A DNA stretch of 64,000 nt from NCBI RefSeq assembly GCF_013167455.1, contig NZ_CP038328.1; one strand, given 5' to 3'. Position 1 is the stretch's first letter, and every line of letters starts with the position of its first letter. The DNA comes from Escherichia coli O157:H7 (GTDB lineage: Bacteria; Pseudomonadota; Gammaproteobacteria; Enterobacterales; Enterobacteriaceae). Below are positions 36,699 through 39,600 of this stretch, in pieces. A program made the position numbers.

Positions 36699-39600
36699 TA
36701 ATGAGGGACGTATTTGTATTAGTCGCGACTTGATCTGACACATGGCCTTGAAAGGTTGAGAGTTACCGGTTTTGATATGAGTGTCGAATCCTTATCCAAA
36801 ACAAGAGGTAACTCTCATGCTTCATACTGCCAATCCCGTCATCAAACACAAAGCCGGTTTGCTCAATCTGGCTGAAGAACTCAGCAACGTATCAAAAGCC
36901 TGTAAAATCATGGGCGTTTCGCGTGATACGTTTTATCGTTACCGCGAACTGGTCGCTGAAGGCGGTGTGGATGCGCAGATTAATCGTAGTCGCCGCGCTC
37001 CTAACCTTAAGAACCGTACCGATGAGGCAACTGAACAGGCTGTTGTTGATTACGCCGTCGCTTTCCCGACACATGGTCAGCACCGGGCCAGCAACGAACT
37101 GCGTAAACAGGGGGTTTTTATCTCCGACAGTGGTGTCCGTTCTGTCTGGTTACTCCATAACCTTGAGAATCTCAAAAGACGATACTGAACAAATTTTATC
37201 AGGTGACGTTCCGTAAAAAGTTGTATGGAGTTCTCGATGCAGTCGGCGCGACTATCAGTACCCCCGCTGAACCCTGGACTATCGGGCCGCCGTACTGGGG
37301 CATGTCACCCTGGCGTGCCGCTGGTTTTCCGCTAATGGTTTATTTCCTCTTTCTTTCCCGGCAAGAATTTATTTTAATCCGGAAGGATTATTTATTTTCA
37401 GATAGGGACTCACATTAAACACGTAACATTTTAATTAATGCATGGCTGAATATGTATTACACAATGTCAGATATCGTAAAAGACCAGTGCAATTCTATGT
37501 AAACTCTCTGACTGTTCATTTTATTTGTTGTTTCAGGGTCGGAACTCACCCTCAATAAACAACTGAATACGAGTAGATATTCATCGTCTGAGCTATATGG
37601 CTTTACACAATAGCCGACATGTCTTTTCTCAGTCAGGAATTTTACTTTTCCTCACTACGAAGTTGACGACTTCGATATGGGATAGACTCTTAATTCAAGC
37701 AATTACTCTGCACAAGCATCAGGCAATCCAGCTCCAATATTTGTTATAAAATAATGCGTAACATTAATTTCACCAACAAAAAAAGGTTTACACCATCCCC
37801 TTGCCCTGGTATCTTACCATATTTACACCACACTTTTTTTGTATCTGGATCATTCTTTGATACGATTTTCGCCACTTGTTCCCTGGCCCTCACTGTCAAT
37901 GTTTTCTTAAACCTCCCCCCATCATCATTTGTTAGGGAAAAATAAGAAAAAAATAATCATCTTCTACATTTGTGTATATTGATATATCCACCGCTACGTG
38001 CGGAAAAAAATCTGGGAGCCATGTAAAAACTCCATCATTTTCTGGTATTGCCATATAGTTTATGTAATGTTTACTTACAAGAGATTCATCTTTGTATAAA
38101 TAAAGATAAGTAATTACGCATAAAACAACAATGATTATAATAGCAATAATAAATATTATCATCTTTGATAGATTACTTGAGATAGCCAGCATCTTGTAAA
38201 GCCTTTATCGTTTCTTTATGCTCTGGATTAATATAATCACTACATCTATCTGAGCAATCTGTTGTTGATGGACATGTCAACCCATGGTCATTTACAGCCA
38301 AGTCTTTTTTATTATCTTCAATCATTTCAGAATGGGATAGCTTTACTTTTCTGCCGTACATACCGAACAGATTTAACCCGTAATCTCTAATCTCTTTTTC
38401 ATAACCCAGCCCTTTCGCCGATCGGCTAACACCAGCGTCATTTAATTTAGACACTCGACAAAATGCCATACAATGGAAAAATTGATCAGTCCCACCTAAA
38501 TTTAATCTCTTCATATCTTCATAAGTATCAGATAATATATCCCATGCTCTTTGATGGTTTAGTTGATCTTTTCTTCTTATTAGCGCTACATCTGCGGGAC
38601 TTAACCCTAATGGATCAATACCATTCACCGGATTCAGCGGATACGCATACAGACTCCATCCCCCCTCCAGCCCTATCGGGTCCTGAGTGATATACCGCCC
38701 CTGCAACGGATCGTAGTACCGGTTCCGGTTGTAGTACAGCCCCGACTCCTTATCATACTGCTGCCCCGGCAGCCGGTACGGCTGGTGCAGGTGATGCGGG
38801 TTCTCCTCATTCAGCTGGTTGCCCCATTCATCATACTCCCCGCTCCACGCCGTATTGCCGTCTTCGCTGATGAGCGCCAGCGGCAGGCCCCGGTGGTCGC
38901 AGTGGTAAAGATGAACTTTTCTCGCCGGTGTGTATTCCGGCTCCACCTGTCTGGCCAGTTGCTCCACCGTCAGCCCGCACTGCGCAAGCCACGCCCGGCT
39001 TTCACTGCTCACGCGGTCTGCCCGGATTTCTTCCTCCAGTCTGTCCAGCAGCCGCACCAGTTCAGCCGGAAATACCACACCGTGCCCGTCCTCGCTCCCT
39101 TCCTGCTGCAGCTTCTCCGCCAGGCTGCGGCGCTGCGCTTTCTCCCGCTCACCGTTGTCTGTTTCGATGCGGATGAGCGGCGCGAAGCTTCCCGGCTCGT
39201 ATACCGTCTGGATACGCGTGGTGTCGGTCTGTACCGTCGTCAGCCGGTCGCCGTCCCACCCGTACCACGTCACCTCCGGTTTCCGCGACAGCGACATCCA
39301 TCCCGTCAGGTCACGCCCGCGACGCCACACCCGTTTCCCCGTCCGGCGGCCCAGCGGGTCGTAGAGGTAGCGGCTCTCGACCAGTGGCTCGCCATGCTGT
39401 ATCCGCGTGTAGAACACCAGGCGGTGCTGGCTGTCGTAGTGGTAGTGGTGGGTCCGCTCGTCGTCCGTCCGTATCACACCCGCCGGGATGCGGTCCGTCT
39501 TCTCCGTCAGCCTGCCGTATTCATCGTGTCGGTAGACATAGTGCGCATCCTCCGCGATGCGGTTATCCGGCCACGCCGTGAGCGTGCTGTCCGGGTGTAG

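Follow-up and report, generated by a model that had tools for sequence, protein, structure and literature searches.

A serum-amyloid-A-homologous tip on the Rhs protein at the rhsD locus of Escherichia coli O157:H7, followed by a frameshifted candidate immunity gene

What does the rhs gene at the rhsD locus of Escherichia coli O157:H7 carry at its C-terminal end? We analysed a stretch of 64,000 nucleotides from this organism (contig NZ_CP038328.1 of RefSeq assembly GCF_013167455.1; hereafter the window). A sequence-only reading had described here an Rhs protein whose last ~142 residues follow a conserved PxxxxDPxGL boundary and an abrupt drop in guanine-plus-cytosine content (GC), as in a swapped polymorphic-toxin tip, and had left this tip in no recognised family. 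We found that the tip is a homologue of serum amyloid A (SAA). The interpretation that we favour, at a probability of roughly 0.55, is that the locus is a classical Rhs polymorphic-toxin module whose exchangeable, SAA-homologous tip, of the prok-SAA family, acts in the periplasm, and that the module is out of use in O157. The parts of the gene, with their coordinates in the window, are as follows.

38173-42369, minus strand: complete rhs open reading frame (ORF) of 1398 amino acids, from the ORF list, between ybbP and selU/mnmH.
38602-42369, minus strand: conserved Rhs core, residues 1-1256, with a partial PAAR-like N-terminus, DUF6531, YD repeats and the Rhs-associated core.
38602-38616, minus strand: DPLGL closing the Rhs core, the PxxxxDPxGL boundary motif, last residue 1256.
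38176-38601, minus strand: toxin tip of 142 amino acids (residues 1257-1398), a prok-SAA (serum-amyloid-A-like, Lipocone superfamily) domain with the C-terminus DAGYLK.

The gene order, ybbP, rhs, a small ORF, the ylbI/ylbG remnants, mnmH (selU), allS, allA, allR and gcl, is that of the rhsD locus. Positions 37300-38700 are 100% identical to many O157:H7 chromosomes, and in genomes with this identity RefSeq labels the rhs product 'RHS element core protein' (WP_000014801.1). The NCBIfam model RHS_core (NF041261) spans residues 1-1256 with 2766 bits against a cut-off of 2000, TIGR03696 spans residues 1179-1256 (E = 1.8e-23) and TIGR01643 matches nine times in the same scan, and Pfam finds DUF6531 at residues 46-123 plus RHS_repeat. 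GC is 64.1% in the core (38617-42369), 36.9% at 38173-38616 and 32.8% in the next 470 nucleotides, the ybbD region, compared with 52.6% for the whole window, and the switch is confined to about 60 nucleotides, around 38600-38660. The drop in GC beyond the boundary and the extent of the tip were thus described correctly by the sequence-only reading, which was also right to see a swapped polymorphic-toxin tip on a conserved core; the composition is that of a foreign cassette. A full core, and a PxxxxDPxGL boundary with a compositionally different tip beyond it, are both present, as in Rhs/YD-repeat polymorphic toxins. The intact cognate immunity gene that should lie directly downstream in such a module is missing, as the gene found there, ybbD, has two frameshifts. 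A scan of 37200-38700 for promoters and terminators returned matches at chance level only.

To which family does the tip belong? No NCBIfam model covers its 142 residues, a search of the Protein Data Bank (PDB) with the single sequence gave SAA as the best match at only E = 0.31, and a word-indexed homologue search returned close enterobacterial relatives only (E. coli, Hafnia, Kluyvera). The relationship to SAA became clear only when a profile made from these relatives was run exhaustively (HMMER) against 1.84 billion representatives, which gave 122 representative proteins at E <= 1e-3. In most of these the tip-like region is the C-terminal domain of a longer protein, several with RHS/TEN_YD-shell domains, and as C-terminal cassettes of polymorphic toxins, Rhs among them, they occur widely, in diverse bacteria and in metagenomes. 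We built a tip-family alignment (A3) of 44 sequences, with a mean column identity of 30% and no SAA sequence among them. When its profile was compared with PDB sequences, the only significant matches were SAA proteins, 7zh7 at E = 2.9e-15 and human SAA1 and mouse SAA3 (4ip8, 4q5g) at about 1e-11. Pfam SAA (PF00277) is matched individually by 34 of the 44 members, with a best E of 1.7e-26, and some distant relatives of the tip finish in ...GLPEKY or ...GLDPKY, the same as vertebrate SAA.

An AlphaFold2 (AF2) model of the tip, built on A3, has a predicted local distance difference test score (pLDDT) of 94 and a predicted template modelling (TM) score of 0.87, with six helices (2-33, 39-51, 56-78, 90-108, 116-123 and 129-137). 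Searched against the PDB with Foldseek, this model returned SAA1 or SAA3 structures as all of its top seven matches (probability 1.00, target-normalised TM 0.68-0.73), and nothing else in the PDB was close. A Pfam match of the tip to Peptidase_C7 (E = 0.02-0.04) was dismissed as chance; no family member matches it at E <= 0.001. Based on the family profile, the Pfam matches of the relatives and the Foldseek matches, homology of the tip to SAA is established. Thus the swapped-tip part of the sequence-only reading stands, while its 'unrecognised family' gives way to prok-SAA. That reading had named a confident match to a well-characterised toxin domain as a finding that would speak against it; prok-SAA, which is defined computationally only, is not literally such a domain.

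Two database entries that contain the tip are unusual in themselves. An ENA protein of 183 amino acids (P0002) has an AllS-like HTH_1 N-terminus fused directly to the tip at a shared 'VAL', which suggests that allS and the tip were joined by a deletion or in a chimeric assembly. A 91%-identical tip fragment (P0025) is labelled Ligilactobacillus salivarius and is probably contamination.

If the tip is an SAA homologue, which of its residues does the family keep? A3 has ten invariant columns (in tip numbering, D39, H43, C44, C48, E70, D96, D100, N104, C116 and C120) and three nearly invariant ones (M30, D73 and G107, with G107 in at least 90% of sequences), and every family-invariant residue is intact in the O157 tip. 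The four invariant cysteines make up two Cx3C motifs, C44/C48 and C116/C120, and the predicted pocket consists of D39, H43, E70, D73, D96, D100, N104 and G107. Two of the pocket residues are placed on the DNA here.

38473-38475, minus strand: H43 of the tip, residue 1299 of the protein, in the predicted pocket.
38392-38394, minus strand: E70 of the tip, residue 1326 of the protein, in the predicted pocket.

In the HMMER alignment, the tip invariants fall on D33, H37, E63, D75, D79 and N83 of SAA1, and the glycine position corresponds to SAA1 G86. Vertebrate SAA (PF00277; 4ip8, 4q5g) is homologous in fold and sequence, with D, H, E, D, D, N and G at corresponding positions; it differs in being a secreted host acute-phase apolipoprotein with no toxin context, and it lacks the four cysteines and the long loop between helices 3 and 4 (H3-H4).

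The family to which these residues point was described by Burroughs, Nicastro and Aravind (eLife 2025; PMC12419801), who defined the Lipocone superfamily, including Wnt, SAA, TelC, PTDSS and VanZ. Within it, the prok-SAA family (SAW clade) consists of polymorphic-toxin tips in RHS, type VI secretion system (T6SS) and MuF contexts, with membrane-anchored immunity proteins (Imm-SAA or Imm-BamE). The proposed prok-SAA pocket has a His in helix 2, a Glu in helix 3, an Asp in helix 4 and an sNxxGR motif; its predicted activity, by analogy with TelC and PTDSS1/2, is cleavage or exchange of phosphate-linked lipid head groups, and the proposed descent runs from bacterial toxin to animal SAA (PMC12419801). 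The O157 tip fits the pattern of His (H2), Glu (H3) and Asp (H4) plus sNxxG as a predicted pocket. It is significantly related to PF00277, its sequence has the conserved His, Glu and Asp (H43, E70, D96/D100), and a soluble four-helix core with a short fifth helix is present in the AF2 model only. Like prok-SAA in general, it is, in the model, a helical bundle that has the predicted pocket residues and forms the C-terminus of an RHS protein, and a transmembrane-anchored candidate immunity protein is encoded downstream; unlike the family at large, it has a C-terminal extension of ~20 residues (helix 129-137) that is confined to close relatives. The prok-SAA sequence list of PMC12419801 includes HAU8267270.1, a Kluyvera protein (P0021 here) that is 57% identical to the tip, and we did not find the E. 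coli RhsD/ylbH tip by name in the text or the examined supplements of that paper.

A likeness to SAA had also been noticed for this gene. Vazquez-Lopez and Navarro-Garcia (2020; PMC7216683) modelled the Rhs tips of EDL933 and reported that RhsD (z0651) resembles SAA1, with an I-TASSER-type match to 4ip8 at TM 0.62. They proposed that the tip acts in chemotaxis, inflammation or auto-aggregation, named z0654 as the putative immunity gene and classed rhsD outside the vgrG islands. Thus the SAA-like nature of the tip is already known, for the gene (2020) and for the family (2025), in both cases from computation. The present analysis adds the identity with ylbH, the invariant residues with the twin Cx3C motifs, the pairing with YbbD across distant relatives, the frameshifted O157 immunity gene, the homopolymer polymorphisms across E. 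coli and the lead to BteO, an effector discussed below. No functional study of ylbH or ybbD turned up in literature searches.

Does the tip have a partner that could protect its producer? The gene directly downstream, ybbD, is the candidate, and it is broken in O157.

37932-38192, minus strand: 5' part of ybbD, candidate cognate immunity gene, an 86-amino-acid ORF whose ATG overlaps the last 20 nucleotides of rhs.
37703-37931, minus strand: out-of-frame remainder of ybbD, from three-frame translation; in tblastn, the reconstructed 163-amino-acid protein splits over three frames.
37947-37953, minus strand: ybbD frameshift site 1, T7 for T8, common to K-12.
37778-37784, minus strand: ybbD frameshift site 2, T7 for T8; K-12 and the intact alleles have T8, and T7 is also found in cluster P0143 (149 amino acids).

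The 86-amino-acid ORF encodes an N-terminal transmembrane helix and a TWLPDFFP motif. It matches NCBIfam NF011297, an 86-amino-acid equivalog, at 6.7e-58 and fills only positions 1-85 of the 163-amino-acid model NF011298. As the gene has lost one base from each of two T8 runs, O157 ybbD is a pseudogene. Intact YbbD of 163 amino acids is present elsewhere in E. coli (P0142, with 1,365 member sequences, and WP_000879785.1, 'YbbD family protein'), P0144 and P0149 are further intact homologues of this length, and YbbD homologues carry the Pfam domain YbbD_head (PF26610). The C-terminal domain of YbbD is probably beta-rich, with two conserved extracytoplasmic cysteines, and in an otherwise poor AF2 model (pLDDT 53) the transmembrane helix is the only reliable part. 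We found small transmembrane-anchored W-L-P-x-F-F-P proteins, with YbbD_head, directly downstream of an orphan tip that is 51% identical to the O157 tip (loci L008-L010), and YbbD-like transmembrane W-L-P-x-F-F-P proteins also directly downstream of far more distant metagenomic Rhs-SAA tips (L007, L011). Such a pairing, kept across divergent pairs, is as would be expected of a toxin and its cognate immunity protein.

The L008-L010 locus (e.g. GCA_003324795.1, CP029992.1:3515658-3524800) is an enterobacterial orphan array of stacked toxin-immunity cassettes. It has, in order, an Ntox16-like fragment, a DUF6714 protein, a 380-amino-acid Rhs fragment with the SAA-like tip, the YbbD_head protein and a TseH-like protein with Imm58.

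How did this tip come to stand on the RhsD core? Compared with K-12 RhsD (1426 amino acids), the O157 protein is 89-98% identical per 100-residue block to about residue 1200, and identity then collapses to 56% in the penultimate block and 12% in the final one. The two tips are thus unrelated. The sequence-only reading, which had expected a different tip from the shorter length of the O157 protein, is borne out by the 12% of the last block. It had also taken identity with the K-12 RhsD tip as a finding that would count against it; no such identity was found, yet the tip is nearly the same as that of a K-12 orphan, ylbH. The O157 DNA is almost identical to the K-12 array ylbH-ybbD-ylbI (b0499, b0501, b4632), which lies just after rhsD-ybbC. 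The match starts ~90 codons upstream of DPLGL and ends past ylbI; this nearly identical stretch reaches ~1.3 kb downstream of the O157 tip. Between the O157 tip and K-12 ylbH we found a single residue of difference, E to K. With its 236 codons (the tip and ~90 codons of core), K-12 ylbH is an orphan that has no Rhs shell, in contrast to the O157 tip, which sits on a full core of 1256 residues. The K-12 ybbD has the site-1 frameshift in common with O157, and the second frameshift is absent from it.

In K-12, an extra cassette, RhsD-CT plus ybbC, lies between the core and the ylbH tip, whereas the O157 tip is directly on the core. The K-12 RhsD tip thus occupies the same locus on a near-identical core and is unrelated to the O157 tip, and its immunity protein YbbC (PF15631) is unrelated to YbbD. 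An arrangement of this kind, C-terminal displacement, has been described for rhs genes (PMC2935791), and K-12 ylbH has what a displaced orphan should have, namely the same tip as a main gene together with a retained core end. Either O157 is without the RhsD-CT/ybbC cassette or it never gained it, and the displaced orphan tip of K-12 is the main tip of O157. We also tested the K-12 orphan pair ybfO/ybfC as a relative of the ylbH/ybbD module and found it unrelated. Of 5,426 complete E. coli genomes, 3,373 carry the tip region at least in part, K-12 and commensals among them. A junction query across the point at which the orphan is truncated found the tip joined to at least 180 nucleotides more core in 963 of the 5,426, and of the ~3,400 carriers most of the others are K-12-like.

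The far end of the orphan array is ylbI.

37241-37336, minus strand: ylbI, 32 codons left over from the N-terminal end of another rhs gene (tblastn, 87.5% identity over 32 amino acids).

It is annotated as a pseudogene in K-12 and as a partial coding sequence in O157, and it adjoins the ylbG ORF (36781-37188, plus strand), which is truncated and resembles a helix-turn-helix protein or transposase. ylbI has the look of a further rhs gene of which an insertion element left only a stump.

To see in what state the module is found across E. coli, we compared homopolymer runs in rhs and in ybbD. The run in rhs is the following.

38660-38665, minus strand: G6 run in rhs, ~20 codons before DPLGL, polymorphic in E. 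coli in a four-way alignment of O157, E2865, M8 and K-12.

The G7 allele of this run is a frameshift that separates the tip from the core. The exact G6+T allele of O157 and K-12 is present in 1,804 genomes and the exact G7+C allele in 423. For ybbD site 1 we counted exact-allele matches of a probe of 84/85 nucleotides, and T7 was found in about 1700 of about 2240 genomes overall, divided by background as follows.

O157 allele background: T7 (frameshifted) in 294 genomes, T8 (in frame) in 1 genome.
K-12 allele background: T7 (frameshifted) in 1,414 genomes, T8 (in frame) in 530 genomes.

Individual genomes combine the sites in different ways.

E2865 and M8: rhs G7, ybbD site 1 T8, site 2 T8.
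ST866: core 'frameshifted', a tip ORF of 151 amino acids as in E2865 (WP_001013164.1), intact 163-amino-acid YbbD.
E2863 and E2855: rhs G7, ybbD site 1 T7.
K-12: rhs run G6, ybbD site 1 T7, site 2 T8.
O157: rhs run G6, ybbD site 1 T7, site 2 T7.
RMDEC332: most of the core missing, intact 163-amino-acid YbbD.

The core is annotated 'frameshifted' in ST866, OkiPb01679 and E2865. In a limited sampling, none of the genomes sampled was shown to have both the rhs tip fusion and ybbD intact. The module is inactivated by different routes in different lineages. We asked whether the runs form a reciprocal switch that has the toxin in frame just where the immunity gene is out of frame. E2865, M8, ST866 and O157 fit this pattern; E2863 and E2855 (G7 with T7) have both genes broken, so the linkage is not strict and the idea was dropped. 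The sole T8 at ybbD site 1 among the 295 genomes with the O157 allele is in O157:H7 Vac_07.1 (NZ_CP076241.1, 4088342-4088426), which could be a revertant or a homopolymer difference of sequencing or assembly.

How would such a module work where it is intact? By analogy with other Rhs proteins, the tip would be encapsulated in the Rhs shell and cleaved from it after DPLGL (Leu1256), and the freed tip would be delivered into a neighbouring cell, presumably by a T6SS. It would then fold and act in the oxidising periplasm, as TelC does outside the cytoplasm, where the four invariant cysteines are predicted to form two disulfides that staple helix 2, with His43, to the extra fifth helix. TelC, the Streptococcus intermedius LXG toxin of the prok-TelC family, belongs to the same superfamily and shares the predicted pocket (PMC12419801). 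In that paper it is the only characterised Lipocone toxin; it cuts lipid II between undecaprenol and pyrophosphate, its toxicity is confined to sites outside the cytoplasm, and the immunity protein works outside the cell. Following this analogy, the tip is probably a lipid head-group phosphoesterase, whose His/Glu/Asp pocket may work at the outer face of the inner membrane and cut a lipid head group linked through phosphate; the most likely target would be an undecaprenyl-pyrophosphate intermediate, lipid II or another. The tip would be blocked by YbbD, which has its anchor in this membrane. Activity of the tip in the periplasm only would have its precedent in TelC and in BteO, and the persistence of an intact toxin gene without immunity in O157 and K-12 would follow if the tip is harmless in the reducing cytoplasm.

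Of all parts of this proposed mechanism, delivery is the weakest, and several observations weigh against the interpretation as a whole. A complete N-terminal PAAR domain was not found in the protein (Pfam PAAR_motif at E = 0.11, residues 3-20, model positions 52-69 of 70), and no vgrG, hcp or eagR is annotated in the matching ~64 kb of O157:H7 TR01 (NZ_CP033605.1). We used the TR01 annotation for gene content only, because identity over the whole window is 97-99% (100% over 37300-38700 and 96.9-99.0% elsewhere). When searched alone against Pfam, the tip has a single and marginal match, to SAA (PF00277; E = 7.4e-4 and 3.6e-4). It departs from the published description of prok-SAA in its sNxxGR motif, which reads VNDHGL (N104, G107) with Leu in place of Arg, and YbbD has two conserved cysteines against the four described for Imm-SAA; its equivalence to the published immunity family would be tentative. 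Our literature search found no experimental work on any prok-SAA member, and toxicity, target and catalysis of the tip therefore rest on inference. In O157 and K-12 it is ybbD that is broken, in other strains the frameshift is in the toxin gene, and the locus may therefore be decaying throughout E. coli. Lastly, BteO, the nearest effector with a solved structure, is reported to be non-enzymatic (PMC12541434).

BteO is the basis of a different account of the tip, as a non-enzymatic envelope toxin whose conserved His/Glu/Asp groove would bind OmpA-family proteins at their periplasmic C-terminal domains and so disturb cell-wall homeostasis, with the immunity protein competing for the same groove. 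According to PMC12541434, BteO is a T6SS effector of Bacteroides fragilis that is toxic only in the periplasm and binds OmpA C-terminal domains, and R143A, H144A, H167A, E168A, D187A and D191A each abolish its toxicity. Its His...Glu...Asp-x3-Asp resembles H43...E70...D96-x3-D100 of the tip when compared by published residue numbers only, and binding of human SAA to OmpA of E. coli has been reported (cited in PMC12419801), which also favours a binding role. However, BteO (with BtiO, from B. fragilis GA3; 9uu0) is described in PMC12541434 as a stand-alone effector with its own transmembrane helix, not an Rhs tip, and we found no sequence similarity between 9uu0 and either of two family profiles at E <= 10. 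BtiO, the immunity protein, is there an OmpA-C mimic with a signal peptide, and YbbD has no recognisable OmpA-C-like features, as judged from a low-confidence model (pLDDT 53). The strict invariance of His/Glu/Asp/Asp/Asn over 44 sequences with 30% mean column identity is more typical of catalysis, and the enzyme assays described for BteO in the available text are for glycoside-hydrolase and amidase activity only, with no lipid-intermediate assay found there. We regard a purely binding toxin as distinctly unlikely. A reading that joins the two, in which the tip is a catalytically active member of the SAA family that hits an undecaprenyl-pyrophosphate-linked or other lipid head group from the periplasm and BteO is a structural relative with the same groove, is tentative, and we would lean against it. 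The role proposed in PMC7216683 from the 4ip8 match (TM 0.62), that of a host-directed SAA mimic that modulates inflammation or chemotaxis or self-aggregates, draws on a homology to SAA that is real and on an O157 strain without a working immunity gene. It fits poorly with a tip that about 3,400 of the 5,426 complete genomes carry, K-12 and commensals included, and with relatives that are C-terminal polymorphic-toxin cassettes followed by a small membrane-anchored protein, the signature of an interbacterial toxin and its immunity protein. The four invariant cysteines are absent from vertebrate SAA, and the descent proposed in PMC12419801 runs in the opposite direction, from bacterial toxin to animal SAA; we consider a mimic very improbable.

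A more serious competitor, although still short of even odds, is that the tip has no present function in O157:H7 and is a decaying rhs-ybbD relic, neither delivered nor expressed, whose open frame is kept by chance or by selection on the Rhs core. Both frameshifts of ybbD argue for this, with T7 at site 1 in 294 of 295 genomes of the O157 allele, as do the alternative inactivating homopolymer changes at the same locus (rhs G7 in 423 genomes, ybbD T7 in ~1700 of ~2240) and truncations of the core such as that in RMDEC332. The window shows no T6SS linkage by the TR01 annotation, and its PAAR is only partial. The T6SS of enterohaemorrhagic E. coli (EHEC), O157:H7 included, is reported to be degenerate and to have no antibacterial activity when tested by competition, and disruption is reported for other Rhs effectors of EHEC (PMC12981562). 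On the other side, rhs is an unbroken ORF of 4.2 kb, its tip keeps every residue that is invariant in the family, and only one residue separates the O157 tip from the K-12 copy. The relic explanation concerns current use and not the identity of the domain, and it is compatible with a prok-SAA toxin module as we propose it. Indeed, two frameshifts in ybbD, no nearby T6SS genes and a degenerate O157 T6SS indicate that the module is probably not in use in O157:H7.

Two further observations concern the window and its comparison with TR01. The alignment of TR01 with the window has many gaps, and the divergence is unusual for two O157:H7 genomes, which suggests that the TR01 assembly is noisy. At 54267-63961, minus strand, we found an ORF of more than 2118 amino acids that leaves the window at its high end, followed by ORFs of 720 and 391 amino acids. 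In TR01 the counterparts are annotated as a giant adhesin like BapA/SiiE, with a frameshift in that strain, a type I secretion permease/ATPase and an HlyD adaptor, and these adhesin and secretion ORFs are unrelated to the Rhs tip.

What does the locus mean for the biology of O157:H7 and of the SAA family? The feature itself is an ordinary Rhs tip swap, and an intact toxin beside a frameshifted immunity gene fits, and modestly extends, the reported decay of T6SS weaponry in O157:H7. The value of the finding is mainly practical. The tip is present in the two most tractable E. coli backgrounds, and both immunity-null alleles (O157, K-12) and intact 163-amino-acid alleles exist, so the prediction of head-group cleavage is directly testable against OmpA binding of the BteO kind. 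If the tip does act on a lipid head group through a groove shared with BteO, K-12 ylbH and a repaired ybbD would be a tractable toxin-immunity pair for studying the biochemical activity that is ancestral in SAA, a major vertebrate acute-phase protein with a molecular function that is still under debate. The pair could also serve to explain why SAA binds OmpA. Proof that the tip is an active enzyme would open a way into the function of the SAA fold.

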